A DNA stretch of 64,000 bases from Escherichia coli. Its GTDB lineage: Bacteria > Pseudomonadota > Gammaproteobacteria > Enterobacterales > Enterobacteriaceae. Positions 1-17,537 of this stretch are shown in pieces (position 1 is the first letter of the stretch; each line of letters opens with the position of its first letter). A program made the translations under genes and the position numbers. Location: assembly GCF_003790525.1 (NCBI RefSeq), contig NZ_CP033633.1; one strand, given 5' to 3'. Under the pieces are notes generated by a model. The model did no database searches. It was given only the letters and a program-made list of their open reading frames with translations, and was not told the DNA's origin.

Positions 1-591
1 GTAGTTACGTGCTTTCCGGGAGAGTGGTACGTCGCGTGGTGAGCCATTTTTCGTTTCAGGAAGATGCGCCACGCCGTGCTGCAAATCGATGTGTTCCCAG
101 CGTAATGAGAGAATTTCTCCCTGGCGCATTGCTGTTTCCAGAGCCAGATGGAAGATAACGTAGAGCTGCGGATTTTTGTCCCTGAAATAGCGGGAAAGGC
201 GGCGTTCTTCACCAGAAGTCAGTCGGCGGTCGCGGCCATTACTGATTTTCGGTTTTCGGACCAGTTCAACAGGATTCATACGGCATGTTCCCCATTCCAC
301 ACGGGCGATATTGAATAATGATGATAAAAGGGCAAGTTCAAGACGGACGGTATTTCCGGTGATTTGACGCCCTGTTCGTGGGTTAATTTGAGCTAAACGC
401 TGATCCCGGTAACCGGCGATATCAATGGTAGTGATTTCATCCATATAGCGCTCGGCCATAGGGTGACGTTTAATCACATTGACGCGATAAAACTCCTGCA
501 GATGACCTTTTTTATGGACGGAAACGGTTTTCAAGTATTTGTCCAGCGCCCGGTTGAGAGTCATTTTGCGAATTTTGATTTTTCGAAACAT
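1..591 (-). CDS. rci: shufflon-specific tyrosine recombinase Rci, N-terminal ~197 codons (rest of gene lies beyond window start)
   Basis: Minus-strand frame from ATG at 589-591 reads [44 protein letters not shown]... and stays open to position 1; integrase-type N-terminus; directly adjacent to the 19-bp shufflon repeats. Confidence 0.8.
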
Positions 592-653
592 ATCTGCCTT
601 CCACGATAAAAACAGGGAAGGTAGGAATAGTGAAACGGAAATGCAATATCGCC

Positions 654-672
654 GTGCCAATCCGGTGTGTGG
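654..672 (+). repeat. shufflon 19-bp repeat (GTGCCAATCCGGTGTGTGG)
   Basis: Exact 19-mer; encodes CQSGVW leading into cassette 673-879. Confidence 0.85.
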
Positions 673-879
673 GTTGGAGGCAATAAAGTGAACTATTCTG
701 CCTGTAAATGGTATGAAGCGACCTCCGCACATTTTATCGGTGGCAGAAGTGGAGGTTCTATTTATTACAAGCCGATTCAGTGCCCTGCCGGGTACGTCAT
801 GACAGGTACAAGAATGTACGGCATCGGAGATGGTGTTGATGAAGAGCACGTCGATGCTTACTGTTGCCCTTTTGGTTAG
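673..879 (+). other. silent pilV C-terminal cassette
   Basis: In frame with repeat 654-672: ...[24 protein letters not shown]...DAYCCPFG stop; no promoter or start of its own. Confidence 0.7.
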
Positions 880-1121
880 ATTCCGGCACCAGGAAGGTTG
901 AGGCATGTCACTGTAATTGTGCCACCGGACTCATAATTTCCCCACGCATAATTATTCACATACCAAACCTTGTTTTGGTCGGCGTATATCTGCTGAAAAC
1001 CACCAAAAGGCGAGCCATTAAGGTATGTCCACGAGCAGTACGCATGTACGCCAATGCTCAGATTACGAGTATTTTTCCCGATATTGTATGTACTGGTAGT
1101 GAAGTTCATTTTTGTCGTTGT
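876..1121 (-). other. silent pilV C-terminal cassette
   Basis: In frame with repeat 1122-1140 on minus strand: [27 protein letters not shown]...; convergent with cassette 673-879. Confidence 0.7.
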
Positions 1122-1140
1122 CCAGATACCGGATTGGCAC
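1122..1140 (-). repeat. shufflon 19-bp repeat, variant GTGCCAATCCGGTATCTGG (reverse orientation)
   Basis: Reverse complement of 1122-1140; 8 bp from the next repeat; encodes CQSGIW leading into cassette 876-1121. Confidence 0.8.
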
Positions 1141-1148
1141 GGAGGCCA

Positions 1149-1167
1149 GTGCCAATCCGGTGTGTGG
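1149..1167 (+). repeat. shufflon 19-bp repeat (GTGCCAATCCGGTGTGTGG)
   Basis: Exact 19-mer identical to 654-672; in frame with cassette 1168-1539. Confidence 0.85.
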
Positions 1168-1539
1168 GTTGGCTTTGAATCCTACCCTGTGGGAAGCCCT
1201 ATCCCGTGGCCATCTGCCACTCCTCCACAAGGCTATCTGTTGATGAACGGCCAGTCGTTTTCCTGTTCCCGGTATCCTCAGCTTGCCCGTGCTTATCCTG
1301 GCTGTAAATTGCCCGATCTGCGCGGTGTTTTTATCCGTGGCTGGGATAACGGGAAGGGACTTGATGGTGATCGGAACAGACAACTCCTGAGTTATCAGGC
1401 CGATCAATCAGGCGTCTATCACGAACGTGGCGGATGGCTGAAAGGGCATCATAGTGGTATGCCATACTGGGCACAGGGGAGTACCACAGAAATGCGTCCC
1501 AAAAATATTGCATTCAACTACATTGTTAAAGCCAGCTAG
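1168..1539 (+). other. silent pilV C-terminal cassette
   Basis: In frame with repeat 1149-1167: [37 protein letters not shown]...; convergent with the expressed pilV tail 1544-1876. Confidence 0.7.
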
Positions 1540-1543
1540 GGAC

Positions 1544-2878
1544 TCACATCTGATAGGCATACACAGAGAAAACACCGTTACCACAGGCGTAATTTTGTGT
1601 TGGTCTGGAGATGATTTGATATGACGCTCCCACTGGCACGGCAAATGAAATAAATGCTGTCTTTCCGTAGGAGGGGTTATTGCTGGCATTCATACCAATG
1701 AAAGCGCCGTTCACATAGCCCTGAAGATTTGATGTGTTGGCGCAATCACCGCCACCGGCACCATTTCCACCGGAAGCGTACACAAACAAAGTTCCTCTGC
1801 CGTTATTTCTCCCGTTAAATGTTCCCCGGTGAGAACCCAGATTGCTGTAACTTCCGTCAGGTGCACCAATCGTTCGCCACACACCGGATTGGCACGAAAG
1901 TATTGCCCCTTTACTGTCGCGGCCTACAAGTCCGTCCGGTGAGCAGGAAGTACCTGCGGTGGCTGTTTTATCCAGCTGTAAATACTCACCCGTGGAAAGA
2001 CGCCCCTCAGACCGGACAGTTCCACCACTGACTTTTCCTCCTTTGAGCTCTCCTTCGGTTGTGATCCCTTTGTTGTTAACAGCACGTATCCATTGGCTGT
2101 CCGTCATGGTGAAACCGCCTCCGTGCGTCGTGTTCATCCACCCCTTGTTGTTTCTGGTGATAAGCCAGCCGTCTTCGCTGGTTATATCGCCTTTCACCGT
2201 GGCTTTCTGACCATTGAGGTTACCGGCGTTATTGATGTCATTTCCGCTCATGTTGATAGCTGTGTGCATCTGGTTCAGCTCTGGTCTCCCCGGGACCTGG
2301 AAACGATACAACCTGTCGCTTTCCTGCAGATCATCACCCGTCATGACGACGGCAATGTGACCTGCCGAACAGGTGAGTCCGTAATCCCCCGGTTTGTCTG
2401 TCCAGGCGCCGAATGCGCCGGTTGCTGTTCCGTTTTTACCAATATAACCACCCAGCCCGGGAAGCTGTCCTGCCACACTGCGCAGACCATCTTCTTTGAT
2501 ATTCTGCCCCCCTGTTGAGCAGGTCAGGGCTTCAAGACGTCCTGTAGTCTGGTTACGGCGGATACCCGTGATATAACTCTGCCCAAACGGAGAATGATTA
2601 AATCCCTGTTTCAGGTATCCCTTGCGAATCAAATCATCGGCTGTAAAGTTTGCCGGAAGGCTGCCGTTGTGCAGAGTGGCATTGTTATCGGCAATGTAAT
2701 TTCTGGCTGCGGTATTGTAGGCATCTGCATGAGAAGCAGCACTCTGGTAAAGCTGTTCATTCAGCCAGTTTTCTATTTCGGAATAAATCAGCGGCGTGGC
2801 GATACCAATCACTATCAGTCCCGCCAGTATTTCAAGCAGAATAAAACCTTTGTCGTCATCGTGTCTGAACTTTTTCAC
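1544..2878 (-). CDS. pilV: PilV, thin-pilus minor pilin/adhesin (prepilin-like) with shufflon-supplied C-terminus
   Basis: 444 aa; N-terminal prepilin-like KGFILLEILAGLIVIGIATPLIYS; shufflon repeat embedded at 1877-1895; last gene of the pil operon. Confidence 0.85.
   Translation of the reverse strand: MKKFRHDDDKGFILLEILAGLIVIGIATPLIYSEIENWLNEQLYQSAASHADAYNTAARNYIADNNATLHNGSLPANFTADDLIRKGYLKQGFNHSPFGQSYITGIRRNQTTGRLEALTCSTGGQNIKEDGLRSVAGQLPGLGGYIGKNGTATGAFGAWTDKPGDYGLTCSAGHIAVVMTGDDLQESDRLYRFQVPGRPELNQMHTAINMSGNDINNAGNLNGQKATVKGDITSEDGWLITRNNKGWMNTTHGGGFTMTDSQWIRAVNNKGITTEGELKGGKVSGGTVRSEGRLSTGEYLQLDKTATAGTSCSPDGLVGRDSKGAILSCQSGVWRTIGAPDGSYSNLGSHRGTFNGRNNGRGTLFVYASGGNGAGGGDCANTSNLQGYVNGAFIGMNASNNPSYGKTAFISFAVPVGASYQIISRPTQNYACGNGVFSVYAYQM
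1877..1895 (-). repeat. shufflon 19-bp repeat inside the expressed pilV (junction of constant and variable parts)
   Basis: CCACACACCGGATTGGCAC on plus = reverse complement of the 19-mer; encodes CQSGVW within PilV. Confidence 0.85.
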
Positions 2879-3582
2879 GTGAATATCTCCGAAGTGCGGA
2901 AAACGGAATCAGGGAGGAGGGTTAGTGCATACAGTGATGCGCAGAGAAACGGGGCGAACGGCAGTGCCTGCTGATGTCTGTGACGGCAGAAGAGGAGGAT
3001 AAACAGAAATGCCCCGGAAGCTGCGGCGGTGATTAGCAGCGGCGTGTGTTGTGGCTGTGTCCACATTGCAATTCCTGCTATCAGGAATACATCACCAAGG
3101 CCGAGTGCTTCTGTTCCTTTTGCCGTTATGAAAAACTGCCGTAGCAGGTATGTCATGCCGAACCAGAGTGATGCGTTGAGGAGGCTGTATGTGAGCTCCT
3201 CCAGGCTGTACCTGAACGCTGCCCCCAGAACAATCAGTGAAAGCGTGAATATCCGGGGAAGCCGACAGACGGCGATGTCCGTCAGCGTCATTACAGTTAA
3301 TAATCCCGTCAGAATGGAAAGGAATAACAGCCCCGTGGCTTCAACACCATATGCGCCGTTGAGGCTGACACTCACTATGGCCAGAAGGCAACACACGTAC
3401 ACCACCGGCCTGGGCGGCCGGGTGTCGTGTACTGCTGACAGGTAGAGAGCGGCGGTGATGTATGCAAGATAAAGAATAACCGCCAGGATGATGATTATTA
3501 TTGTCATGCTCAGTAATGCGCTCACCGTCACCTCGTATTTATTAATATTGTCTGAAATACCGGTTGTGGATTTTTCGGGCAT
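2875..3582 (-). CDS. pilU: prepilin peptidase PilU
   Basis: 235 aa polytopic membrane protein with GLGDVFLIAGIAMW-type motif; position between pilT and pilV. Confidence 0.75.
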   Translation of the reverse strand: MPEKSTTGISDNINKYEVTVSALLSMTIIIIILAVILYLAYITAALYLSAVHDTRPPRPVVYVCCLLAIVSVSLNGAYGVEATGLLFLSILTGLLTVMTLTDIAVCRLPRIFTLSLIVLGAAFRYSLEELTYSLLNASLWFGMTYLLRQFFITAKGTEALGLGDVFLIAGIAMWTQPQHTPLLITAAASGAFLFILLFCRHRHQQALPFAPFLCASLYALTLLPDSVFRTSEIFT

Positions 3583-4018
3583 ATATCATGCGCCGGGCTG
3601 TGTTATTTTTGCTGAAACCGGCGTTATAGCTGCCCAGGCATTCCCAGTTAACGCCGCAGCGTTGAAAATGGCGGGCCAGTATCCAGGCACCGGTATGAAT
3701 ATTCAGGCAGGGCTTTTTAAGCAGTTCATCCTTGTTTTTAATGACGCCCAGTTTTTTCAGTTCAGGAATATGCACTGAATTAATCTGCATTATTCCGTAA
3801 TCCGTACTGATGATTTTTCCGGATTTGTTTTTATTGTGATTTATCGCAGTGGCGACCAGGCCGCTTTCCTGCTGTGCAATGGTTTTCAGAAGCTCAGGGG
3901 CAATCAGGTAACGTTTTCCGGCCTGAATAAAACAGGAATCGAGATGATTATTATTCATCACAGATGCGATTGATGTGTTACTGAATAAAAGCAGGACAGA
4001 GAGATATAACCATTTCAT
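3542..4018 (-). CDS. pilT: lytic transglycosylase PilT (SLT domain)
   Basis: 158 aa; signal peptide MKWLYLSVLLLFSNTSIASV; SLT-type motifs GIMQIN and YNAGF. Confidence 0.75.
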   Translation of the reverse strand: MKWLYLSVLLLFSNTSIASVMNNNHLDSCFIQAGKRYLIAPELLKTIAQQESGLVATAINHNKNKSGKIISTDYGIMQINSVHIPELKKLGVIKNKDELLKKPCLNIHTGAWILARHFQRCGVNWECLGSYNAGFSKNNTARRMIYARKIHNRYFRQY

Positions 4019-4076
4019 TATGATAATCCCGGCAGTGACAGCATCCTCTGGTATTTAAGGATGCTGTCCGGAAACA

Positions 4077-4613
4077 TTAGCTGTTTGTTTCAAGGGTGAT
4101 GTTATTTTTGTCGTTACTACATACTGTTACGGGATCCACAGTAGCCGGGGCGGTATTCATGATTTTGGTAAACATGGATGAACTGCGCAGGCTGTTAATG
4201 AGTTCCACGCAATTTTCTTTCGGTACATTATTGCTGGTAATCGTATAACCATACTTATCTGCCGTTGCCTTAATGGTGACATCACCGCCCCAGGCATTTT
4301 TGGCCTTGTTACCACCGGCGATCATATCGGCCGGCAGGGAACCACTCTGCGTCAGCGTTTTGATATAATCACTGCTGGTATATTGTCCCTGGAACTTGTA
4401 CTGCTTCATTTTGGTTGCAATGGTCTGCAGGTTTTTCAGTTCGCGCTGGTTATCACTGGATGACATGGTACTGGACATCTGACTTATTGCGAGAGCAACC
4501 ACAATACCGATAATAATCAGTGCGCTGGCAATTTCCAGTAAGGTTAAACCTTTATCCTCCTCTTTCTCTTTTTTTAAAGCAAAATAAGAATAAAGACATG
4601 ATCTGAAGTTCAT
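4077..4613 (-). CDS. pilS: type IV prepilin PilS (major thin-pilus subunit)
   Basis: 178 aa; leader followed by KGLTLLEIASALIIIGIVVALAISQ hydrophobic N-terminal helix. Confidence 0.8.
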   Translation of the reverse strand: MNFRSCLYSYFALKKEKEEDKGLTLLEIASALIIIGIVVALAISQMSSTMSSSDNQRELKNLQTIATKMKQYKFQGQYTSSDYIKTLTQSGSLPADMIAGGNKAKNAWGGDVTIKATADKYGYTITSNNVPKENCVELINSLRSSSMFTKIMNTAPATVDPVTVCSNDKNNITLETNS

Positions 4614-4662
4614 ATATCACTCCTGGTTTATGGGATGTTTCAGAAATATTCTGTATGCGGGA

Positions 4663-5763
4663 TTATTGTTTCAGCATGTCGCTGATACTGTAGATGGCAG
4701 ATATCATGTTAAGAATAAAAAAGAAGACAAAACCTCCTGATATACCGGTAATAATTAATCCAATTCGTTTTACCCGTTTTTTTGCTTCCTCCAGCCACTG
4801 ATCGGCATAGAGTGCCATGGTTGCCACTCTGTCCTCCCTTTCGGAGTTCAGGAGCAGTTTATTGATGCATATTCTGGACGGAAAATCGTAACCGGAATTT
4901 CGCATTGCTGTGGCCAGATTCTGACCGGATAATACATGTTTTCGTATTGCCTGAATTCTCTCCTTTAACCATTTATTCTTTTCTGCACCTTTTTCCATTC
5001 GGAGCAGCGCCTGCGAAAGAGGAATATTAATCTGCAGCATGGATGAAATACTGAACAGATAATTCACCCCGTGTAAGGTCTGATACAGTGACCAGGGGGG
5101 AGCCTTGTCCAGCATCCTCCGGCCGGGGCCGGTATACCGGCTGAATGAAAAACGGATCAGAAGCGTCAGGGCGAAAATGGTCCCACAGAGCCAGAATCCG
5201 TACCCGATGAAAAATTCCGACATACCGGCAAGCAATTTCATCTGGAATGACCATTTATCTTCTGAAGCAAACGCACTGACGATGGGGATGATACGGGTAT
5301 GGGCGTTGTACATATTCACCACACAGAGCGAAAGCAGCAGAAGGGGGTAGAGGCAGACGGCAATGAGGCTGGATGTCATTTCCCGCCGGGCTTTAACGGT
5401 TCTGGCCACCTGGAAAAGGGCGTCGGCAATATTTCCGCGCTCTTCCCCGTTTCTGATTAACGTGGCTTCCTCCGGTGGCACCCAGGTTAACAGGGCACCG
5501 GATAACATGCCGCTGGCTTTGATGGAATCGATGCATTCTTTTGCCAGAAAATACATGCCGGATGTGCCTTTCTTTTCACCAAAATCGGTTTCGATCTCGC
5601 AGAGAAATTCGAGTGCACGCAGGGACGGCGTTCCGTCACGTATCATGCCGCCCAGGGCTTCGTAGAACTCCACCCGGTTCAGGGCAAAGGTTTTTCTGGC
5701 CATCCAGATGGTCAGCGCTGTCAGCTCAATGTCGGTGCTGTTGAGTTTTTCCAGAAATTTCAT
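4663..5763 (-). CDS. pilR: PilR, polytopic inner-membrane type IV pilus assembly protein (GspF-like)
   Basis: ORF track gives 4663-5829; start trimmed to ATG at 5761-5763 (MKFLEKL...), which overlaps the pilQ stop as TGATATG; multiple TM segments. Confidence 0.75.
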   Translation of the reverse strand: MKFLEKLNSTDIELTALTIWMARKTFALNRVEFYEALGGMIRDGTPSLRALEFLCEIETDFGEKKGTSGMYFLAKECIDSIKASGMLSGALLTWVPPEEATLIRNGEERGNIADALFQVARTVKARREMTSSLIAVCLYPLLLLSLCVVNMYNAHTRIIPIVSAFASEDKWSFQMKLLAGMSEFFIGYGFWLCGTIFALTLLIRFSFSRYTGPGRRMLDKAPPWSLYQTLHGVNYLFSISSMLQINIPLSQALLRMEKGAEKNKWLKERIQAIRKHVLSGQNLATAMRNSGYDFPSRICINKLLLNSEREDRVATMALYADQWLEEAKKRVKRIGLIITGISGGFVFFFILNMISAIYSISDMLKQ

Positions 5764-5764
5764 A

Positions 5765-7273
5765 TCAGTGCAGCAGCGTATAGCTGTCCTCATCGACGGG
5801 AGATATATAATGGGCCGCCAGCGGATCAACCTGTCCGCTGTTGATTTTTCCCAGCAGATGCTGATTACGGGTCATTCCGCCCAGTTCCCGGTGCCAGTAT
5901 GTTCTGGCCTCAATACGCCCCTTTTCCCGGTACAACTGGAAAAAACGGGCATCCGGGGAGATGACTTCTGCGATCACTGTTCGTCCTGTCACGCCACGCC
6001 AGCAGTGCGGGCAGCCTTCATGATTTCGCAGATATACCTGGTCCGGGTTGCAGACGCTTTCCACCAGGCGCCGTTCATTATCCGTGCGCTCGGTAGCCAC
6101 CTCATGCCAGGGGCGACGGCAGTGCGGACATATCAGCTGAACCAGACGCTGGCTCAGCAGGCCAATGAACAGTTGCGGGTCGGCAATCATCCTGGCCTGT
6201 ACCCCCTCCATCTCAAGACGTTCGAGGATGTTAATCGGGTCGTTCGCATGGATGGTGGTCAGCATCAGATGCCCGGTCATGGCGGCTTTTATTGCCGTAA
6301 TGGCGGAATCGTGGTCACGGATTTCGCCGTTCAGGATCCCGTCAGGGTCAAGACGTAGTGCTGATTTAATGGAGTCCACCCAGCCCTGTGCGGAATCCAT
6401 GACGGCAGTCTGAATGGCACCGGGTATACGGCCCTCTGGCGGGGATTCAATGGTGAACAGCCTGCGACGGGGCAGAAGAATACCGCCGGTATTGTTGAAG
6501 CCGTACTGTTCAAGGTACGCCGCAGAGGCGGTTCTCAGCGTGGTGGATTTTCCTGAACCTGTTGGTCCTGAGAGCGTGATAATACCTTCAGGGCGCTGCA
6601 GAATACGGCGCAGGGTGCGCTCCTGCTCAGGGTGGTAGCCCAGCATGCTGAAGGTCGGGATTTGCAGACTGTCATCCTTGATCAGACGGAGCACAGCATA
6701 GAGGCCGCCCACGCAGGGATAGTGGGAGTAGCGTGCACCAAACAGACCGGCCAGTTTCAGGTACTGCTCTGAAAGACGCGCATCCTGAGGCACCCCGGGA
6801 TCAAACTGTGTGCCCTTGATGACGTCGGTCATGCCGGAATAGGTGGCCCCCAGTAATTCGAGGCCTTCTTCTTTCCGGAGGATATCGAGCACTTCCAGTT
6901 CGCCGTGAACCCGGGCTTCCACATAGGTGAAGTCCGTGTTGTCTCGTCCCGGGGTCATATGAAGGTCTGAGGCACCAAGAGAGGCAGAATGGCGGATATA
7001 GCCGAGCATTTTCTGCTGTACCGGGTTAATGACGCTTTCATCACCGGCGGTTGTGGTGTCCTGTCTGAGGCGGGCTATCACATCCAGGGTGGTGAATTCA
7101 AAGTCTCCCACACGCCCCTGATGACGTGCGCGCAGGCGGGTCAGATATTCCTGGACGGCACGCAGATGTTTTTTTCCCTCCACGACCCTGACCCGCAGAT
7201 GACCGGTTTTATCTGTGTCGATAGCCACATAATCCAGAATGTCATCCGGTGGCAGGTCTGCAGGATCCAACAT
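5765..7273 (-). CDS. pilQ: PilQ, type IV pilus assembly ATPase (GspE/PilB family)
   Basis: 502 aa; Walker A LSGPTGSGKSTTLR; C-terminal CPHC...CPHC zinc-finger-like tetracysteine. Confidence 0.85.
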   Translation of the reverse strand: MLDPADLPPDDILDYVAIDTDKTGHLRVRVVEGKKHLRAVQEYLTRLRARHQGRVGDFEFTTLDVIARLRQDTTTAGDESVINPVQQKMLGYIRHSASLGASDLHMTPGRDNTDFTYVEARVHGELEVLDILRKEEGLELLGATYSGMTDVIKGTQFDPGVPQDARLSEQYLKLAGLFGARYSHYPCVGGLYAVLRLIKDDSLQIPTFSMLGYHPEQERTLRRILQRPEGIITLSGPTGSGKSTTLRTASAAYLEQYGFNNTGGILLPRRRLFTIESPPEGRIPGAIQTAVMDSAQGWVDSIKSALRLDPDGILNGEIRDHDSAITAIKAAMTGHLMLTTIHANDPINILERLEMEGVQARMIADPQLFIGLLSQRLVQLICPHCRRPWHEVATERTDNERRLVESVCNPDQVYLRNHEGCPHCWRGVTGRTVIAEVISPDARFFQLYREKGRIEARTYWHRELGGMTRNQHLLGKINSGQVDPLAAHYISPVDEDSYTLLH

Positions 7274-7369
7274 AAGGCCTCCTTACGGGCAGCGGCGCCC
7301 GGAAAATATGTTTTCTGTTATTAAGCGAGGGAAATAATCAGTTCTTCTGCGGAGAGAATCTGGACATTT

Positions 7370-8044
7370 TCAGCACAGGCTTAACAGTGTAAAAATGATT
7401 ACGCCTCCAAAAGCGAATAACAGGGGAATGTTTTTCTCCGGCTGTGTTGATCTCAGCGTTAATACCGGTGTGGCGAGAGCGTAAAAAATAATACCTGCGG
7501 TATAAATAAAATAAGGTGTGATGCCGGACAGATTACATACACTGGCGAATATCATAAGCATGACGGCAACTACCGATAAAATAATGGAAGTATTCTTCCA
7601 TTCACCAGATGGTGTAAGTGAAATGATATCGCCATCCTGTTTATAGTTCGTGTTCAGCTTCAGGAAATGACGGATATCTTTCAGCGTGTTCAGTTTCTGC
7701 TGGATCTCTTCCACAAGTTCCTGTCTGTCGGTTTTTTCACGGAGCAGCTGGAATTTTGTCTCCCTCAGTACAGATATAATACGGTCCACCTGGCCGGGGG
7801 AGGGATAGTAATGATGTTCGAGCATCCACCGGATATCGGCGATTAACCGGTCAGTTACCGGTGTATTACCGTTGTTAATGAGAGGTGTTTCGTGCATCCA
7901 CTGAAATATGCGGTAGATATGTCGCTTAACAAAAATAAAATCATCGGTGGTTTTATTCTCCAGCATGAGATATATCCCGTCGAGTGTTAATAATAAAACG
8001 TCCCGGGTGTGAGGTGATTTGTGATGTATTGTACGGAATATCAT
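7370..8044 (-). CDS. hypothetical protein with C-terminal transmembrane helices (unassigned, inside pil operon)
   Basis: 224 aa; soluble N-terminal ~150 aa then 2-3 hydrophobic helices; AT-rich relative to flanking pil genes; no recognisable motif. Confidence 0.55.
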   Translation of the reverse strand: MIFRTIHHKSPHTRDVLLLTLDGIYLMLENKTTDDFIFVKRHIYRIFQWMHETPLINNGNTPVTDRLIADIRWMLEHHYYPSPGQVDRIISVLRETKFQLLREKTDRQELVEEIQQKLNTLKDIRHFLKLNTNYKQDGDIISLTPSGEWKNTSIILSVVAVMLMIFASVCNLSGITPYFIYTAGIIFYALATPVLTLRSTQPEKNIPLLFAFGGVIIFTLLSLC

Positions 8045-8175
8045 TTCTGCACTGTAATCGTTTACGCAGGTGATATATCACACCAGAGTAAATACAGCGG
8101 AATGAAGCTGTAGAGTGACCAGAAAAGCCCGACGGGATCTTTTGCCCACAGGCATAAGAATGTCAGTCCGGTGCA

Positions 8176-8616
8176 TCATGCGCCGGCAAGTGCCGCGCAT
8201 AATTCAGCGCCTCCGGAATTGCCGCTCTTCATCATATAACAGAGCGCGATCAGCAGTGGGATAATGAAGACGAGCGGCAGGACAAAGGATTCGGCTGCGG
8301 ATATCCATTCCCGGTAACGCCAGCGGTCGTTTAATCTGTCGGCATCATATTTCAGACAGTTGCTCAGGAACGCCAGATCGTTCATGAGGGGGGCGTCCTG
8401 GCCATACTGCGCCGCGAGGCGCATTCTGGCACCCCACAACCGGGCACTCAGGGCACGGAGTTGTGCCGGGGTGACCTGTTTTCCCCGACAAAGTTGTACC
8501 TGTAATTGTGTTGCCTCGTGGACAATATCTGTGTGGTTCACCCCATATTCTGCAGCGGCTGTTTCCAGGTCACGGATGATCAGGCTGAGCCAGGATATCA
8601 GTTCACTGATGTTCAT
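8176..8616 (-). CDS. hypothetical protein with C-terminal transmembrane helix (unassigned, inside pil operon)
   Basis: 146 aa; soluble N-terminal part then FVLPLVFIIPLLIALCYMM helix; co-directional, between pilP and the 224-aa ORF. Confidence 0.55.
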   Translation of the reverse strand: MNISELISWLSLIIRDLETAAAEYGVNHTDIVHEATQLQVQLCRGKQVTPAQLRALSARLWGARMRLAAQYGQDAPLMNDLAFLSNCLKYDADRLNDRWRYREWISAAESFVLPLVFIIPLLIALCYMMKSGNSGGAELCAALAGA

Positions 8617-8664
8617 TGTCGTTCATCCTTTTGTACGGACAGCCGCCTGTACTGGCGGCCGGTT

Positions 8665-9117
8665 TCATGGTCGCAGGGTTTTTCTGATGCCGGACTGCTC
8701 CAGTACCACACTGTCCGGTGTGATTTTCTCCACGAGATAAGGGGTTCCGGGGATGTTCTGGCCCGTCTTCACATCGGTGATGTGTCCACCCGAAAGTTCT
8801 ATCCGGGCTCTCAGCTGAGGCTGTACACCAAATATTTCTGTCAGACGGGGGGATGTCGCCGTCGACGGGGCAGTCGGGATGGCGGACGTGCTTTCCTGCG
8901 GACGACCGGGCTCTGCGGGAATACCCTGCTCCAGCATGCGCAGTTCATGACGGATTTTCTCTCTCGCCAGCATGGCTTCATACAGGGCTGTTTCGTCCTG
9001 TATCCGCTCAATCTGCAGTTGCCGGGGACTCTGTTCCTCTGCGTTTCCGGTTGTGGCCATTGCCGTTGCCGGTAACAGCAGCGCTGAAACCAGAAGGGCT
9101 TTTGTTTTAGCGTGCAT
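8665..9117 (-). CDS. pilP: PilP, periplasmic pilus assembly protein
   Basis: 150 aa; signal peptide MHAKTKALLVSALLLPATAMA; overlaps pilO stop; operon position. Confidence 0.65.
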   Translation of the reverse strand: MHAKTKALLVSALLLPATAMATTGNAEEQSPRQLQIERIQDETALYEAMLAREKIRHELRMLEQGIPAEPGRPQESTSAIPTAPSTATSPRLTEIFGVQPQLRARIELSGGHITDVKTGQNIPGTPYLVEKITPDSVVLEQSGIRKTLRP

Positions 9118-10402
9118 AATATTTACCTGTAAATTGATAGTGGAAACGACCGTTCTCCAGTTGTCGTGTGACAGAGATAAAACGGACAGAAGGCGCCTTC
9201 AGACGTTCAACCAGCTGGTATGCCGGGAGTAGCGTCTGTATCTGAAGGTCATACTCTTTCCACGGAGGCTGGATAATATTTCCGTTTTCATCGGTGACGC
9301 TGTTACTGACCTCCTGCCAGTCCAGCGTCAGTGGCATTGACTGAGCAAGCGTGGTCAGTTGTTCTTGCAGGACAGAGCTTTCCGGCAGAGCATCAACGTC
9401 GACGGGATGTTCAGGCAGGCGGAAGCTGACTGGCAGGCCAATGCCGCCGGTCTTTCCTTCCGGCATCACAATAAAGGGGCGGGTACCCGTCATATCACTG
9501 ATGCGCCGGATGAAGTCAGTCACTGTCGCGCCAGCTGTATTAGTGTACGAGGCGCGAAGATTGCCGCTGCCGCCGTCAGTTGAACATTCAGCCAGCGAAT
9601 AACGCCATCCGGAGGCAGACAGTGGCAGTGACGTCCATATGTCAGCACATCCCTGGATAAAGGCGTCGGTTTCGGGGAGTCCGGGCCAGGGGGGACTGAT
9701 TTGTTCCTCTGTGACCTGTCGGGCAGCTGCTGCCTGCGCGGCTTGTTCAGTCTTCCACCGTTCATAATACTGCCAGCCGTACCATGCAGCGCCGAGAAGG
9801 GCGATGATCAGCGAGACAGTGATGAACTGCGCTCCCCGGGATACCGGATTCAGGCGCGCGGCAGCCGGATGTTTACCAGAGCCGGTCAGGGTGGACAGCG
9901 GCAGGGCCTGATTCTGATCGCCTGCTGAAAATGCCACCGGTTCATAGCGTGTCCAGCCCTGCTCCGGTTCGGTGTTGATGGAAAGAAAGGTATCCCGGGC
10001 TTCACGGACCTCTTCTCCGCTTCCCACCAGGTCACTGACGAGAACACCGTCGACAGCGGAAACAAAGCTGTAGCGCGGTGTTTCTCCGGGTAACGTCAGT
10101 TCCGTGATGGCATAGCCGCCATGTTCAAGCAGTGGCAGGATCAGCAGGGCGAGGGAGAAGCACTGACGGGGTTTTCCGGGCAGTATGCGGCGACTGACAG
10201 TGGCTACCATGGTGTGGGTATCGGCATCTTCATTACTGAGATACTGACAGGCCAGGAAAAGGTCGGCTTTCTGTGCCCGGGCAAAGTCGCGGGCATGCCG
10301 GTACTGTGAGGGCAGTGTTTTCCATTCCAGCCCGGCCAGAAACACATTGCGCCCTGCCGGCAGCGGAAACACCTGCCGCTCTGTCGGTGAAATATCCGTC
10401 AC
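9107..10402 (-). CDS. pilO: PilO, pilus assembly protein
   Basis: 431 aa; internal TM segment FITVSLIIALLGAAWYGW; operon position between pilN and pilP. Confidence 0.65.
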   Translation of the reverse strand: MTDISPTERQVFPLPAGRNVFLAGLEWKTLPSQYRHARDFARAQKADLFLACQYLSNEDADTHTMVATVSRRILPGKPRQCFSLALLILPLLEHGGYAITELTLPGETPRYSFVSAVDGVLVSDLVGSGEEVREARDTFLSINTEPEQGWTRYEPVAFSAGDQNQALPLSTLTGSGKHPAAARLNPVSRGAQFITVSLIIALLGAAWYGWQYYERWKTEQAAQAAAARQVTEEQISPPWPGLPETDAFIQGCADIWTSLPLSASGWRYSLAECSTDGGSGNLRASYTNTAGATVTDFIRRISDMTGTRPFIVMPEGKTGGIGLPVSFRLPEHPVDVDALPESSVLQEQLTTLAQSMPLTLDWQEVSNSVTDENGNIIQPPWKEYDLQIQTLLPAYQLVERLKAPSVRFISVTRQLENGRFHYQFTGKYYAR

Positions 10403-10422
10403 GATCGTCCTCCTTGTGAAAA

Positions 10423-12042
10423 TCAGATGATATTGGGCGTGATCAGCACCACGAGAATGGTGTCGTCGTTTTCACTGTTGATCCCACCGCCAAGACCGAA
10501 GAATCCCGGCGTGCCTACACCCTGTTTTCCGCTGCGACGTCCTGACTGCTGGAAGCCACTGATAATGACCGTCTGCCCGGATTTCAGATCCACGGTCTGA
10601 TTGATGGTTTTCAGATCCACATTCGGCAGCTGGGCTTTACTTCCACCGCTCTCATAATTCTCAATAACCGGTTTGTCGGAGAGACTCATGGAATAGAGCA
10701 ACTGCAGTGTCTGTGAGTCCGGGAGAATGAACGGCAGAAGGGTCATGTTAAAACCGGTGGTGATGGTGGCCGCATTCAGGGAGGTGGATGAGCCGACATT
10801 GGCAGTGGTATCCGTCGTCACACTCTCGATGTAACTCTGCTGATTGGCGATCTGCATTGGCACCGGCGTCAGGTTTTTGGTGACGGCAGAGTGCTGGGTC
10901 ACCACACTGACAACCCCCTGGGAAGACAATGCTTTCAGGAAGGCTTTTGAACCGGTGAGTTTACCGTCCACAATGGAAACACCACCTGTGATGGCATCAC
11001 TGGCTGCACTGGTGAATGTGCTGCCGAGACTCAGTCCCAGCGTTCTGTCGCTGAAGACTGCGTTCCAGTCGATACCGGCCTGCTCATTGCGGGTTTTCCG
11101 GATACTCAGAATTTCCACATTCAGCACCACCTGACGTTTCATCTCTTCATTGCGTTTTTCAATGAATGCCCGGACCGTTTCCAGAACCTGTGGATTATCT
11201 GTGACGGTTATAAAGCCCGTGGACATGAACATGCGTCCGATACCCGGGGTCAGCATTGATGTGACCGCATTTTTCACATCCTGATACAGCGCAGACTTCA
11301 TATCCACGGTGGTGGTCTGGGTATTGCTGGCATCACCGGAAATGGCATCTGATGCACTGCCTCCTGATGAGCCGTTTGAGGACATGGTGCCGCTGACCAC
11401 AGTGGCGTTATAGGTCACCTGACTGTCCATATAGGTGATGGGGAAGGTCTGTGTCTCGAGATAATAGAAGATGATATGCGAGCCGTCATAGCGCCAGGAT
11501 ATACCGAGACGGGAGGAGACCGCATTCAGCAGGGTCGTCAGGCCGGAGGCATTCAGTTCAGACAGTGCTGCGGTATTTCCCGGCAGACGGGATGATGGCG
11601 TGTCAGATGCGCCAATGGCGGCAAGGGGAACCATGCCGCTTGCATCCGGTGGGGGTAACGCGCCCTGGATTTGTTGTGTGCTGCCGGTTGTGGATGTATT
11701 CAGGTATGTCAGTACATCAGGTGTGATCCGTACAGGAATATGGCAGCTTTCCGTGATCCGCTGAACCACCTGCTGAAGGGTGATGCTCTGACGGGTATGA
11801 ATGACAATGGGACAACCGGGAACGGTTTTGCCGGTGTTTTTATCCATGACCGGACGGGGATTGATCCATTGTCGAGAGGATTCCTTAACAACCGGCGTCC
11901 GGGTTCGCAGATCAGACATCATTTCCCGTGCCCGTTGTTGTTCCGCAACGGCTTCCTTTCTTGTGCTCTCAAGCTGTCTGTAACTGGCACAGCCCTGTAA
12001 CAGAGCGGCGGCAATCATAATGGCAAGAATTTTTTTATTCAT
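10423..12042 (-). CDS. pilN: PilN, secretin lipoprotein (outer-membrane channel)
   Basis: 539 aa; lipoprotein signal MNKKILAIMIAAALLQGCAS; secretin-like C-terminal domain ending VLITPNII. Confidence 0.8.
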   Translation of the reverse strand: MNKKILAIMIAAALLQGCASYRQLESTRKEAVAEQQRAREMMSDLRTRTPVVKESSRQWINPRPVMDKNTGKTVPGCPIVIHTRQSITLQQVVQRITESCHIPVRITPDVLTYLNTSTTGSTQQIQGALPPPDASGMVPLAAIGASDTPSSRLPGNTAALSELNASGLTTLLNAVSSRLGISWRYDGSHIIFYYLETQTFPITYMDSQVTYNATVVSGTMSSNGSSGGSASDAISGDASNTQTTTVDMKSALYQDVKNAVTSMLTPGIGRMFMSTGFITVTDNPQVLETVRAFIEKRNEEMKRQVVLNVEILSIRKTRNEQAGIDWNAVFSDRTLGLSLGSTFTSAASDAITGGVSIVDGKLTGSKAFLKALSSQGVVSVVTQHSAVTKNLTPVPMQIANQQSYIESVTTDTTANVGSSTSLNAATITTGFNMTLLPFILPDSQTLQLLYSMSLSDKPVIENYESGGSKAQLPNVDLKTINQTVDLKSGQTVIISGFQQSGRRSGKQGVGTPGFFGLGGGINSENDDTILVVLITPNII

Positions 12043-12072
12043 GGGAGATCCGTGAGTTATTCAGATTCGTGA

Positions 12073-12510
12073 CTAATTCATCCAGAGGATGACGTGATCG
12101 GGGATCACCGACGGAAGTGTGACGGAAAGCGCTCTGCCGGCGGTGTCCAGCAGCCGGCCGTTTTCCACCCTGCCGAGGAGGGCAGAGTCATGACTCTGTT
12201 CCCTGAGGGCGGCCATCAGGCCCGGGGTTTCTGTGGCCCAGACAAAAACACGTTGCTGGCTGATGATATGACTGACGGTATCCGTCCCGGGAAGCCCGAG
12301 CTGAGCGGATGTCAGCCGCCCTCCGGCTGTCCGTCGTTCCGGATTCTGATGCAGGTAATCATTGATGGCGTTCATATAACGAATGAACGTTGCTGCCTGT
12401 TGTGTGTTTTCTGCGGCCTGATGACGGTGTTCGCTGCGGGAGAGCTGACTGGTGAACCAGAAATTGCCGGTGGTCGTGATGACCATGATGAACACGATGA
12501 ACCAGCCCAT
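12073..12510 (-). CDS. pilM: PilM, inner-membrane pilus assembly protein
   Basis: 145 aa; N-terminal TM helix MGWFIVFIMVITTTG; operon position. Confidence 0.65.
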   Translation of the reverse strand: MGWFIVFIMVITTTGNFWFTSQLSRSEHRHQAAENTQQAATFIRYMNAINDYLHQNPERRTAGGRLTSAQLGLPGTDTVSHIISQQRVFVWATETPGLMAALREQSHDSALLGRVENGRLLDTAGRALSVTLPSVIPDHVILWMN

Positions 12511-12514
12511 AAGG

Positions 12515-13585
12515 TTATTCCTGTGGACGATCTGTCACCCGCAGCAGACATTGTGCTGTGCTGGTCCGGGCATACAGCGGTTTTTCCACCGGGGTGTAGA
12601 GTGCAAATAGCTGTTCCAGCGCCTGGCGGAAACTGCCGGTGAAAACCAGAGGAGCATCGATGCTGTAGTTGACAGGTGTTTCCCAGCGCAGTGTCCATGT
12701 GCCGTGCGGGCATTTTTCGGATGATGTCCAGCGGGCCAGTCCGTCTTTCAGGGTGGTCCCCTTTTCCATTTTCCACTGCCGTGGCGGTATGACCTTCTGC
12801 GGTGGTGTCACTACCGGTTTCGTGGCCACCGGGGCTGGCGTGGTTGTTCTGCTCTCTGGTGTTCCGGATGTCCCGGTGGTGGTCTGAGCCCGGGATACGC
12901 TGACGGCAGGTGGTACCTGTGCCTGGTCTGCCGCTGTTCCGGTTGTGCTCCTGAACGGATTACGTGGTGTGTCCGCTGTTTTCTGTGAACCCTGCGGTGT
13001 CGTGACGTCGACCGGCGGTGTTGCAGAGGTCGTGACAGTCAGTATTTTCCTGTTCCAGTCCATATGTCCGTAAAGCTGCTGGCCGGCCAGCAGCGCATTC
13101 AGTGCCCGGTGCCACTGGTCATTAACGGACCAGGAAGGGAGGCGTTTGTTCAGTGCCGGTGTGGCGGCATTCTGCTGGCGGAACTGCCAGCCGGTTGGCA
13201 GCAGCTGGCGTATCCAGTCACTGACGGTGCGCTGACGTGCTTCACGTAAATAAACGACGGATGAGGGACCGGGCTTACCGGTCATAACCAGTGCAGACAG
13301 CGGTGTGGCCTGAAGAAGCGGGCGGGGAGGCAGTGCGGTACTCTGGCTGCTGACAGTGGTTGAGGGTGTCGCCGTTGTTGTCGGACGGGGCGGTGTCACA
13401 GGGCGGGTCACCGGTGGCGGAAGCAGACGTTTTTGCGTATGGGTGATAATGGCAGCACTTTCGCGAATTTGTCCGTCGACGAACACCAGAGCCGGAGGCG
13501 TGGTATCCGGAACAGGCGTGGCATTAAATGCCGTACAGCCGCTGAGTAATGACGGCAGAAGGAGTGTCAGTGATTTCTTTTGCAT
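12515..13585 (-). CDS. pilL: PilL, pilus assembly lipoprotein
   Basis: 356 aa; lipobox LLSGCTAF; Pro/Thr-rich linker; first large gene of the pil operon. Confidence 0.7.
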   Translation of the reverse strand: MQKKSLTLLLPSLLSGCTAFNATPVPDTTPPALVFVDGQIRESAAIITHTQKRLLPPPVTRPVTPPRPTTTATPSTTVSSQSTALPPRPLLQATPLSALVMTGKPGPSSVVYLREARQRTVSDWIRQLLPTGWQFRQQNAATPALNKRLPSWSVNDQWHRALNALLAGQQLYGHMDWNRKILTVTTSATPPVDVTTPQGSQKTADTPRNPFRSTTGTAADQAQVPPAVSVSRAQTTTGTSGTPESRTTTPAPVATKPVVTPPQKVIPPRQWKMEKGTTLKDGLARWTSSEKCPHGTWTLRWETPVNYSIDAPLVFTGSFRQALEQLFALYTPVEKPLYARTSTAQCLLRVTDRPQE

Positions 13586-14606: not shown

Positions 14607-14924
14607 TTATAATTTTATCCGGGACCTGGCTTTAAGGGGTAATGCCACCTCTTTCCATTCACTACAGCTTCCGGGAATACGTTCTGTGCGTCGTATTATT
14701 CGTGTGTTCTGGCATACAATAATCAGGGCATTGTCTGCCGTCTGAAATGGCATTATAGCGATGTTTATATCTTCTGTTGCAGGAATATAACTGACTTTCT
14801 TTTCACATGTATTGGTGTATATGACAACTCTGAATTTTTCTGCGGACATTTTCAATCCTCTTTTAAGCCAGAATATCCCGTGAGGGCATTCTTTGTGAAA
14901 AAGATGCCGGAAAAATTCCGGCAC
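14607..14924 (-). CDS. hypothetical small protein (start may be the internal ATG at 14849)
   Basis: ORF track 105 aa; internal MSAEKFRVVIYTNTCEKK... is a plausible start; directly downstream of the SPFH gene. Confidence 0.4.
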   Translation of the reverse strand: MPEFFRHLFHKECPHGIFWLKRGLKMSAEKFRVVIYTNTCEKKVSYIPATEDINIAIMPFQTADNALIIVCQNTRIIRRTERIPGSCSEWKEVALPLKARSRIKL

Positions 14925-14929
14925 GGGGA

Positions 14930-16624
14930 TTAAACCTGTTGTGGTTCTGAGTTATCCGGAGTGGTTACCGGTTCGCTGACATCCGGAACCTTTTCCGGGG
15001 CAGGCATGACCAGTGGACGTGTCAGGGCTGTAAGTCCTTCACCGGATAAACCCACCTCTTTCAGCAGGGAGTCGATGAGCGGAGCCTGTGTACGGTAAGC
15101 CAGAGCGGCGGTTACTGCCTGTTCAGCGAGATTTCCGCCACTTATGTCGGTTGTTGCTGTTTTACCGCGGGTAACACCGCCATTCAGACCATCCACCTGA
15201 ATGATTTTAATACCGTCAATGGATTTCATTGGTTCTGTGGACTTCTCTATGACGGCAGGTAATGCATCCAGCAGGGCAAGACGGAAGCGGAGGCTGGTCT
15301 GCTCATCCGAAAGCACGTTAATGGCATCGTTCAGTGCGCGCTGTGCTTCTGCTTCTGCCAGACCTTTCTGACGGGTGGCCTCCGCCAGTTCAATAATTGC
15401 TGCTGCCTGGAGTTCGGCTGCTTCTTTTTCAGCCTGTGCGCGAACCGTCAGTTCAACCGCTTTCGTTTCAGCTTCCTGAGCAGCAGCAATCAGGGCAACC
15501 TGTTTGGTACGGCCGGCCTCTGCAGTCTGGCGGGTGGTTTCCACATCCTGCTGGGCCTGTACGGCCTCAGCCAGTGCTTTACTTGCCCGGGCTTCTGCCT
15601 GTGACTGCTCTTCCGATTTTGCCGCCACGGCAATGGCTCTGGCCTGGCTGGCGATTTCGGTTGCCTGCTGTTGTTCAATTTCCCGTATGGCCACTTCCCG
15701 TTCGGCTTCGACCTGGCGGGTACGCACTATCTGCTGTCGTTCGATTTCGGCTTCCTCTATCTTACGTTCAGCCAGAATTCGCGCGGATTCTGCTTCACGA
15801 CGTCGTTCAGCTTCAATAGCAGCAATACTGGCACTCTGCTCTGCCGTACGGGTTTTTACCCGTTGTTGTTGCTCCAGAGTCATGAAGGCTTCCTGCTGTT
15901 CAATCTCCAGACGTCGGGAGAGTGCATCCCGGTTTTTTTCCCTGATGGCCACTTCAACATCCTGCTCAACTTCGTTGCGTTCGCGGCGACGACGTTCTGT
16001 TTCCTGGGTCAGAAGGGTCAGGCCTTCAGCATCAAAGGCATTGTCAGGATTAAAATGTACCCGTGCAGTCTGGTTGAAACTTGTCAGCGACACACTTTCA
16101 AGCTCCAGACCGTTTTTGGATAAGTCTTCCGCAACGGTGTTCTGCACACCCTGAACAAAGTTCTCGCGGGCATCCTGTAAATCCTGCATGCTCATTCTGG
16201 CCGCCGTGGCCCGTAGGGCATCAACAAATTTATCCTCGACCAGACTACGCAGATCTTCAGGTGTGAGCGTGCGTTGTCCCAGCGTCTGGGCTGCAGTGGA
16301 TATTCCTTCGGCTGATGGTTTTACCCGAAGAAAAAAGGCAACGGCAACATCAACACGCATGCGGTCGCGGGTTATGAGACTTTCAGCCGCTGCACGACTG
16401 ACTTCCAGCTTCAGGGTGTTCATGTTGACGGGAATTGTTTCGTGAAAAATGGGCATAACAATTGCACCGCCACTCATTACCACTTTTTGGCCTCCCAGAC
16501 CTGTGCGGACAAAGGCCTGCTCTGCCGATGCCCGGCGGTACAGGCGGGCAAATATCAGCCCGATAACGAACAGGGTGAGGACCAGCGCTATAACGGTAAA
16601 CAACCATCCCGGAAGATTAAACAT
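14930..16624 (-). CDS. SPFH/band-7 (flotillin-like, YqiK-like) membrane protein
   Basis: 564 aa; N-terminal TM helix, SPFH-like region, then long Glu/Ala/Arg/Gln-rich coiled-coil; size and layout match E. coli YqiK. Confidence 0.75.
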   Translation of the reverse strand: MFNLPGWLFTVIALVLTLFVIGLIFARLYRRASAEQAFVRTGLGGQKVVMSGGAIVMPIFHETIPVNMNTLKLEVSRAAAESLITRDRMRVDVAVAFFLRVKPSAEGISTAAQTLGQRTLTPEDLRSLVEDKFVDALRATAARMSMQDLQDARENFVQGVQNTVAEDLSKNGLELESVSLTSFNQTARVHFNPDNAFDAEGLTLLTQETERRRRERNEVEQDVEVAIREKNRDALSRRLEIEQQEAFMTLEQQQRVKTRTAEQSASIAAIEAERRREAESARILAERKIEEAEIERQQIVRTRQVEAEREVAIREIEQQQATEIASQARAIAVAAKSEEQSQAEARASKALAEAVQAQQDVETTRQTAEAGRTKQVALIAAAQEAETKAVELTVRAQAEKEAAELQAAAIIELAEATRQKGLAEAEAQRALNDAINVLSDEQTSLRFRLALLDALPAVIEKSTEPMKSIDGIKIIQVDGLNGGVTRGKTATTDISGGNLAEQAVTAALAYRTQAPLIDSLLKEVGLSGEGLTALTRPLVMPAPEKVPDVSEPVTTPDNSEPQQV

Positions 16625-16650
16625 AGTGAGAACCTCTGTATATGTCGGGA

Positions 16651-17271: not shown

Positions 17272-17537
17272 TTTTCCTCCTGTGGCAGGTCAGTCAAACA
17301 ACATTATGGCGTGAAGCTTCCGCTTCTTTAATTGTCAGAAGAAGCATATCGTCAGTCATCAGAAGACAAGGGGATGTCTGCAGGAGGGGATGATAACAAC
17401 AGAAGCCTCACGCCGGAATGCGCTTTATGACAACCGGAGAGGACGGATAATCAAAAATGGGACATCCACATCAGCAAACCGCGATTTGCGAAAAAAAGTC
17501 AGCGGAGAGTGGCTGCCGTTGTGGCTGTCCCGGTATT

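Follow-up and report, generated by a model that had tools for sequence, protein, structure and literature searches.

Evidence for a reduced two-segment pilV shufflon on an IncK2/Z conjugative plasmid

Results

Gene Content of the Locus

The window, the whole stretch of 64,000 nt (64 kb) analysed here, opens on the 5′ part of rci, followed by a short cluster of sfx sites and cassettes, the constant region of pilV and a thin-pilus (type IVb) pil operon that is intact from pilL to pilU (Table 1). We read the locus, with high confidence, as a reduced two-segment pilV shufflon on an IncK2/Z conjugative plasmid of the I-complex. MOB-suite typing of near-identical records indicates an IncK2/Z backbone, and upstream of repA Rfam places a PK-repZ pseudoknot (19524-19673). 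The shufflon thus sits at the end of the pil operon on an I-complex conjugative backbone. The visible part of rci (codons 1-197, 591..1) adjoins the shufflon, encodes a recombinase of the tyrosine class and is identical over its 591 nt to the same part of the intact rci of p4FM-NDM-5 (1170 nt, 389 aa). No invertase ORF was found between rci and pilV, and a scan of 400-3000 for promoters and terminators gave nothing above the shuffle expectation.

Table 1. Coordinates of the shufflon, its recombinase gene and the thin-pilus operon in the 64-kb window.
Feature	Coordinates	Strand	Remarks
rci (shufflon recombinase), codons 1-197 only	1..591	-	Pfam Phage_integrase E=1e-11; gene leaves the window at the left edge
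sfx site 1, GTG type ('repeat g')	654..672	+	Adjoins rci; core GTGCCAA 654-660, right arm 661-672
Silent cassette, 74 aa, partner of C, presumably C′	655..879	+	In frame with sfx 1; stop codon 877-879
Silent cassette, 87 aa, C type	876..1139	-	In frame with sfx 2, from 1140(-) to stop at 876
sfx site 2, ATC type ('repeat f')	1122..1140	-	
Spacer, 8 bp	1141..1148		GGAGGCCA, between abutting sfx 2 and 3
sfx site 3, GTG type	1149..1167	+	
Silent cassette, 129 aa, phage tail collar domain	1150..1539	+	Pfam Collar PF07484 E=2e-13
Expressed PilV tail, A type	1544..1876	-	116 aa including sfx-encoded CQSGVW (from 1895(-))
sfx site 4, GTG type	1877..1895	-	Junction of pilV constant region and variable tail
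pilV constant region, 328 aa	1896..2878	-	Prepilin motif G|FILLE; Pfam Shufflon_N E=2e-106
Thin-pilus (type IVb) operon	2875..13585	-	ORFs and annotation of the collinear pPK8275-145kb
pilU	3582..2875	-	Thin-pilus operon
pilT	4018..3542	-	Thin-pilus operon
pilS	4613..4077	-	Thin-pilus operon
pilR	5829..4663	-	Thin-pilus operon
pilQ	7273..5765	-	Thin-pilus operon
pilP		-	Thin-pilus operon
pilO	10402..9107	-	Thin-pilus operon
pilN	12042..10423	-	Thin-pilus operon
pilM		-	Thin-pilus operon
pilL	13585..12515	-	Thin-pilus operon

Four sfx Sites and One Abutting Pair

An sfx site comprises the 7-bp core GTGCCAA and a conserved 12-bp right arm (TCCGGTnnnTGG), next to a left arm that is not conserved (PMC9045228); site names follow PMC5350095 and PMC9045228. 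A search of the whole 64 kb with the pattern GTGCCAATCCGGTNTNTGG, allowing up to three mismatches, returned exactly four matches, against 0.22 expected by chance, and four or more were reached in none of 100 shuffles. They are the four 19-bp repeats of a preliminary description of this DNA, which had placed them correctly to the base and on the correct strands. That description had allowed for degenerate repeats that it might have missed; none further was found across the 64 kb. The sites are oriented + - + -, with those at 654, 1149 and 1877 identical (GTG type) and that at 1122 of the ATC type. Core and right arm are perfect in all four, so that variation is confined to the nnn triplet, and the left arms differ.

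The repeats at 1122-1140 and 1149-1167 form an inverted pair with 8 bp between them, as had been observed before. Their spacer belongs to a 34-bp junction module (1128-1161) that recurs without change wherever two segments meet. The abutting pair is no peculiarity of this window: it is present in every multi-segment relative examined, one pair lying at every segment junction of the three- and four-segment relatives, and R64 has two. The pair forms the boundary between two self-contained segments. Since the 31-bp sites overlap each other's left arms, the two are not expected to recombine mutually and would recombine with distant partners only. The orientation of the spacer was considered as a sign of inversion between the abutting sites and found uninformative, because group inversions also flip it (R64 has two opposite orientations). 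The abutting palindrome folds strongly as single-stranded DNA.

The pilV Cassettes

The sites delimit two invertible segments, 654-1140 and 1149-1895, each of which holds a convergent pair of pilV 3′ cassettes, an arrangement that the preliminary description had recognised; every repeat (4/4), translated as CQSGxW, leads in frame into an open cassette. The 444-aa pilV ORF (2878..1544, minus strand) crosses the sfx site at 1877-1895, and its 3′ end is the cassette already proposed as the tail that is currently expressed.

When the cassettes were set against the R64 tails, a comparison that had been suggested earlier, counterparts were found for three and none for the fourth. Both tails of the left segment have R64 counterparts at 83% identity (L004 28742(+) for the 74-aa cassette and L004 29216(-) for the 87-aa one); their stop codons overlap, and NCBI names the product of the C-type cassette 'shufflon protein C' in NZ_CP141229. 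The expressed A-type tail, for which the NCBI name is 'prepilin, shufflon protein A', is 71% identical to a 117-aa tail of R64. The collar cassette, which runs from the 1149(+) repeat to its stop at 1539, has no match in R64 and no counterpart among the A, B, C and D cassettes there. It occurs in 407 plasmid records at no less than 95% identity, and it is 42-47% identical to the C-termini of phage tail fibres and 40-50% identical to tail-fibre regions on E. coli plasmids of ~95-100 kb that carry several copies. Scanning the four tails with NCBIfam named none of them, and Pfam named the collar tail only. Proteins identical to each of the four predicted PilV fusions occur in public assemblies, many of which have the PilV-collar fusion, in this exact form, as a called gene.

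Isomers among Public Relatives

We then compared the window with 40 de-duplicated public loci that have the same PilV constant region, gathered by exact-protein look-ups of the four PilV fusions. Many are short-read drafts, in which the order of the shufflon may be the consensus of a mixed population, a risk pointed out in earlier work (PMC5350095, PMC5430464). The prevalence of the two-segment form was not taken from BLAST match spans alone, an approach that we rejected, as coverage on one strand drops for the other isomers. A two-segment shufflon is present in 15 of the 40 loci, with both segments 100% identical to those of the window; examples are CP172175.1 (L014), a record described as a complete plasmid, and contig DADFOA010000029.1 of GCA_016944095.1, and one locus (L047) shares the isomer of the window. 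Together, these 15 loci cover all eight possible isomers. One-segment forms also occur among the public loci, and a 389-aa rci product is called in 40/40.

The closest complete record, pPK8275-145kb (NZ_CP080166.1), is 99.6-100% identical to the window, and its shufflon has the same four sites and two segments and differs only by inversion of 652-1142. The comparison reveals the position of the crossover: the left flanks are fixed, and the right arm and the variable triplet move with the cassette. As the inverted segment is itself 100% identical between the two molecules, the inversion is very recent in the lineage. The rci of pPK8275-145kb lacks one base at nt 962, and its annotation records a frameshift; the deletion could be real or a sequencing error.

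Because the two-segment loci display all eight isomers, across assemblies rather than within one culture, the switch is active in this lineage. It might instead be a frozen relic, with sites and cassettes intact and an inactive Rci, so that pilV would be locked in the A-type state and the other three cassettes would be silent passengers. Inactive shufflons with an absent or interrupted recombinase have been reported for pO113, pO26_vir and pSERB1 (PMC3377399), rci is cut by the edge of the window, beyond which lie its 3′ half and the remainder of the recombinase domain, and the nearest complete relative bears the frameshift just described. We nevertheless consider a relic improbable: the visible part of rci is identical to an intact homologue, the full-length product is called throughout the comparison set, the window and pPK8275-145kb differ by an inversion at complete segment identity, the 15 two-segment loci occupy every isomer and all four cassettes have kept open frames. 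Rci is probably active in the window's own molecule.

Even less probable is an assembly artefact, in which a true shufflon of three or four segments would have lost one or two to an assembler misled by the identical 34-bp junction modules. Assemblers are known to have difficulty with shufflons (PMC5430464; Brouwer 2015 as cited in PMC5350095), and near-identical backbones with three segments exist. Against this, the two-segment structure recurs in independent loci at the frequency given above, records described as complete plasmids (pPK8275-145kb and CP172175.1) among them; one-segment forms exist too, and IncK2 plasmids verified by PCR and Sanger sequencing have two, four or eight sites (PMC5350095).

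The collar domain, the NCBI annotation 'phage tail protein' and the resemblance to phage and plasmid tail-fibre regions might have pointed to a phage-type tail-fibre inversion switch of the Gin/Cin/Min family, but we reject this on the class of the recombinase, which is tyrosine (Phage_integrase), and on the type of the sites, which are sfx; moreover, the collar cassette is read from the constant part of pilV (Shufflon_N), which lies within a type IVb pilus operon, and its fusion to PilV is among the called genes. The Gin and Cin tail-fibre switches use serine invertases and different crossover sites. The likeness of the shufflon to the switches of Mu (Gin) and P1 (Cin) is one of function, an inversion that swaps a receptor-binding C-terminus.

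Discussion

Since the R64 work, shufflons have entered the textbooks (Komano review, 1999), and the locus shares with R64 (IncI1; NC_005014) the core and arm of the sfx sites, the CQSGxW frame through the repeat, the position of rci downstream of pilV and the 8-bp abutting pairs, the R64 spacer (TGGCCTAC/GTAGGCCA) differing by one base. Segment 654-1140 is the homologue of the R64 C segment (C/C′). However, R64 has seven repeats, as the preliminary description had stated, with four segments and seven tails (A, A′, B, B′, C, C′ and D′), compared with four, two and four here, and the window has no B, B′ or D′ cassette. The repertoire is smaller, as had also been proposed, with four tails and eight isomers against the seven tails of R64. 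The A-type tail is paired with a 73-aa cassette in R64 and with the 129-aa collar-domain cassette in the window, and the variable triplets are acg/acc/act/cgg in R64 and gtg/atc here. With these counts, and with one tail that has no R64 homologue, the locus is not a strict R64-type (IncI1) shufflon.

Close kin are the IncK2 shufflons (pTMSA1088, pDV10, pDV45, p4809.66 and others), which belong to the same plasmid group and have the same sfx types and cassettes, those of pTMSA1088 being 97-100% identical to the window's. They carry two to eight sites, which fall into types e, f, g and h, a four-site form included (Seiffert et al. 2017, PMC5350095). The order of sites is g-f-g-g in the window, which has only segments C and A/collar, and e-e-e-g in the four-site p4809.66; the arm of the 74-aa cassette is g (GTG) in the window's sublineage instead of h (TTG). 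The IncI2 shufflons (R721, TP114 and mcr-1 plasmids; PMC9045228, PMC5430464) work by the same Rci/sfx mechanism but belong to a different plasmid group and have a different pilV constant region; the likeness is one of mechanism. A fusion of PilV with a phage tail collar under programmed inversion has been described in CP084655.1 (UCP91044.1; Milman et al. 2023, NAR, PMC9881135), a different record that has the same combination of Shufflon_N and Collar and is likened to ours by its domains. The window encodes such a fusion as one of four possible states.

The switch would work as follows. Rci, a tyrosine recombinase, would recombine inverted pairs of sfx sites within the 7-bp core, which would allow inversion of segment 654-1140, of segment 1149-1895 or of both together, the four sites giving eight possible DNA isomers. 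Inversions that involve the site at 1877-1895 would place a different 3′ cassette behind the constant 5′ part of pilV (328 codons), so that the adhesin at the tip of the thin type IVb pilus would carry one of four C-terminal domains: A, as at present, collar or either of two C types. In R64, the tails decide which recipients are mated in liquid, and they bind ligands in the lipopolysaccharide core (PMC9045228). By analogy, the tails encoded here may bind different lipopolysaccharide or surface structures and thereby set the recipients that are mated in liquid.

From sequence comparison, the window derives from its three- and four-segment relatives by a clean sfx-to-sfx deletion. In p4FM-NDM-5, an extra D′/B′ segment lies between two junctions, and the junction of the window, at 1100-1200, is their exact chimera. 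The two-segment form would have arisen from a three- or four-segment ancestor by precise deletion between direct sfx sites or between junction modules, and we infer such a mechanism in line with the report of an Rci that favours inversion yet lets some deletions through (PMC11850598). Near-identical IncI2 plasmids are documented to have gained and lost entire segments, segment C, for example, being lost in 16 of 21 (PMC5430464).

A more speculative idea, which we think doubtful, is that the recurrent precise loss within one PilV lineage (from four segments to three, two and one) reflects a selected narrowing of the recipient range, for example in poultry-associated E. coli, rather than neutral decay, and that the collar tail was captured from a phage tail fibre and targets the same receptor as those phages. 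If this were true, the capture of the collar tail would link the recipient range of the plasmid to the host range of phages.

As a discovery, the two-segment shufflon matters little. It is an ordinary DNA-inversion switch of a well-described, already known kind, its exact form is common in public assemblies of the plasmid lineage, and both the variable number of sfx sites in IncK2 shufflons and the PilV-collar fusion have been published. For plasmid epidemiology, the shufflon is relevant because differences there between assemblies of near-identical resistance plasmids are legitimate. The two-segment lineage is limited to four adhesin tips, and the clean natural series of four, three, two and one segments, with all isomers, is material for studying how Rci avoids, and occasionally makes, deletions.

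Recombination Sites and Machinery of the pilV Shufflon

The shufflon at 654-1895 is real and was correctly read in the preliminary description as a compact array of four repeats, two invertible segments and four tails. The 19-bp Rci recombination repeats (sfx) lie exactly at the coordinates and on the strands assigned to them, and when all 64 kb were scanned with GTGCCAATCCGGTNTNTGG, allowing up to three mismatches, only these four sites matched (0.22 expected by chance; four matches were reached in 0 of 100 shuffles). Degenerate repeats, which the preliminary description might have overlooked, were not found in the 64-kb window.

An sfx site consists of a 7-bp core, which holds the crossover point, and a conserved 12-bp right arm with variable positions 7-9 (PMC9045228; PMC5350095). 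In the window, GTGCCAA forms the core and TCCGGTnnnTGG the right arm; the sites at 654, 1149 and 1877 read GTGCCAATCCGGTGTGTGG and the site at 1122 reads GTGCCAATCCGGTATCTGG. Each is translated in the frame G/TGC CAA TCC GGT nnn TGG as CQSGxW, continuing into an open cassette. Seiffert et al. 2017 (PMC5350095) described shufflons of IncK2 plasmids that have from two to eight sites and gave the repeat types the names e, f, g and h; by these names, the site order of the window is g-f-g-g.

The PilV protein matches the Pfam family Shufflon_N (E = 2e-106), starts with a prepilin motif (G/FILLE) and ends in the 1895(-) cassette, which bears out the tail described as currently expressed. Downstream on the same strand lies the first part of a Phage_integrase-family recombinase, identical to the corresponding part of rci in p4FM-NDM-5, where the gene is intact (389 aa). 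As the rest of rci is beyond the window edge, the activity of Rci in this molecule is something that we infer. Upstream of pilV, the thin-pilus operon is intact from pilL to pilU. Near-identical public records are typed IncK2/Z, and that the window contains an I-complex replicon is confirmed by the regulatory pseudoknot PK-repZ (Rfam RF01087, 177 bits), which directly precedes repA.

Features of the window, with the R64 (NC_005014) counterparts of the cassettes
Feature	Position	Stop	Length	R64 counterpart	Identity
sfx site one	654-672(+)				
sfx site two	1122-1140(-)				
sfx site three	1149-1167(+)				
sfx site four	1877-1895(-)				
Cassette	from 654(+)	879	74 aa	28742(+), 76 aa	83%
Cassette	from 1140(-)	876	87 aa	29216(-), 87 aa	83%
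Cassette, collar domain	from 1149(+)	1539	129 aa		
Cassette, expressed (tail 1544-1876)	from 1895(-)	1544	116 aa	30127(-), 117 aa	71%
pilV	2878..1544		444 aa		
rci, first part	591..1		197 aa		
Palindrome at abutting sites	1115-1175				
pilO2	9107-10402		431 aa		
Stretch absent from pPK8275-145kb	14903-17496		2.6 kb		
Flotillin-like and membrane ORFs	14930-17271(-)				
Flotillin-like ORF	14930-16624		564 aa		
Membrane ORF	16651-17271		206 aa		
PK-repZ	19524-19673				
repA	19686-20558				
ALIL pseudoknot	39312-39428(-)				
ALIL pseudoknot	59237-59353(+)				

Cassettes and Their Tails

The two cassettes of each segment are convergent, with next to no non-coding DNA between them. When compared with R64, three of the four found a counterpart, while the 129-aa cassette matched none of the R64 cassettes. 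The partners of the 74-aa and 87-aa cassettes together make up one R64 segment and the 87-aa type is named "shufflon protein C" by NCBI; therefore, 654-1140 is the homologue of the C segment. The expressed type is named "prepilin, shufflon protein A". Defined LPS-core sugars are the ligands of the R64 tails A, B', C and C' (PMC9045228), and by analogy with R64 the window tails may have comparable receptor specificities.

The 129-aa cassette, annotated by NCBI as "phage tail protein", matches the Phage Tail Collar domain of Pfam (PF07484, E = 2e-13). Its identity is 42-47% with the C-termini of phage tail fibres and 40-50% with the tail-fibre regions of E. coli plasmids of ~95-100 kb. At an identity of at least 95%, this tail occurs in 407 plasmid records, often annotated there as the end of pilV, and the fusion of PilV to a tail-collar domain under programmed inversion has been reported (Milman et al. 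2023, PMC9881135).

Sites one and three are identical over 24 nt (654-677 and 1149-1172, GTGCCAATCCGGTGTGTGGGTTGG), which is 5 nt past the 19-bp repeat. The 74-aa cassette has instead an "h" arm (TTG) in the IncK2 plasmid pTMSA1088 (2716-2739), where the arm is followed by CTTGG, and in one two-segment locus (L016), so two substitutions gave the window cassette the same start as the collar cassette. Gene conversion between sites, rather than a crossover limited to the core, could be the source of these matching starts.

The Abutting Repeat Pair

The 8-bp-spaced abutting pair is no curiosity. R64 has two such pairs (28715/28742 and 29216/29243), with a spacer that differs from that of the window by one base, and the 34-bp module ACCGGATTGGCAC-GGAGGCCA-GTGCCAATCCGGT is identical at every segment junction of the three- and four-segment IncK2/Z relatives. 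Since a two-cassette segment carries its own two sites, neighbouring segments meet back to back, and since a site spans 31 bp in full, each abutting site has a left arm that overlaps the core of the other. Abutting sites would then pair with distant partners only; judged by this overlap, the earlier statement that nothing would be exchanged by inversion between them is in effect correct.

The pair also forms a near-perfect palindrome, with a predicted fold as single-stranded DNA of -19.8 kcal/mol (z = -5.9 versus shuffles). On the transferred strand it could fold into a hairpin; alternatively, it could give rise to a cruciform. With no T-run after it, it looks unlikely to be an intrinsic terminator.

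Origin of the Two-Segment Form

Among close relatives, p4FM-NDM-5 and pEC17CM7_NDM carry three segments with six sites, and pTMSA1088 carries four segments with eight. At 1100-1200, the window junction is exactly chimeric between the two junctions on either side of the extra D'/B'-type segment in p4FM-NDM-5; therefore, the segment was lost cleanly, by deletion between sfx or junction modules in direct orientation. Rci strongly prefers inversion, with documented leakage to deletion (PMC11850598); the deletion may have been made by Rci or, equally in keeping with the data, by the 34-bp repeat undergoing slippage or homologous recombination. Gain and loss of whole segments are documented among near-identical IncI2 plasmids (PMC5430464).

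In many loci that share the PilV constant region of the window (L022, L026, L028, L030, L032, L034-L037 and L039), the A/collar segment is swapped for a different one, ~70 bp shorter, which lies between pilV and rci and whose two tails are an A-like one (CQSGVWRTSGSSNGSY...) and a second one (CQSGSWKGNKEKEHFT...). Differences in segment content therefore arise through replacement, not through loss alone.

Inversion and Isomers in Public Records

Plasmid pPK8275-145kb (NZ_CP080166.1) is 99.6-100% identical to the window and mostly collinear. It has the same four sites, with 652-1142 inverted at 100% identity; across this inversion the left flanks are unmoved, and the arm and its variable triplet travel with the cassette. 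Its rci (27892-29060) has a single-base deletion (T missing at nt 962) and its pilO2 (37576-38870) a single-base frameshift, the window pilO2 being intact. Either thin-pilus function has been lost there or, as is plausible, these are homopolymer sequencing errors.

Elsewhere, pPK8275-145kb lacks the stretch with the flotillin-like and membrane ORFs; all that its annotation shows of it is a 180-nt remnant, a "flotillin domain" pseudogene. Two identical ALIL pseudoknots (an IS3-family frameshift element) lie inverted ~20 kb apart in the window; the surrounding DNA is in a different arrangement from that of pPK8275-145kb and several IS copies match in both orientations, a pattern that suggests that IS elements may have inverted or shuffled the accessory region.

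The + - + - order of the sites allows eight isomers and four expressed tails. The four predicted PilV fusions (the constant 328 aa plus each tail), looked up by exact sequence, were all on record (340, 444, 159 and 222 index blocks). After de-duplication this gave 40 loci, of which 22 had six sites, 15 four and three two; many are short-read drafts, and in these the order of the shufflon can represent the consensus of a population. All 15 four-site loci, including the 94,475-bp contig CP172175.1, carry the two segments of the window at 100% identity and jointly cover 8/8 isomers; therefore, the two-segment shufflon is common and switches freely in this lineage. The isomer of the window (A>Col< C87>C74<, read from pilV, for the 116-aa, collar, 87-aa and 74-aa tails) recurs in L040-L042 and in L047 (GCA_016944095.1), the last being identical to the window in every piece compared. 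The window shufflon belongs, in reduced form, to a system that is thoroughly known, and its two-segment form has already appeared in the literature and is plentiful in databases.
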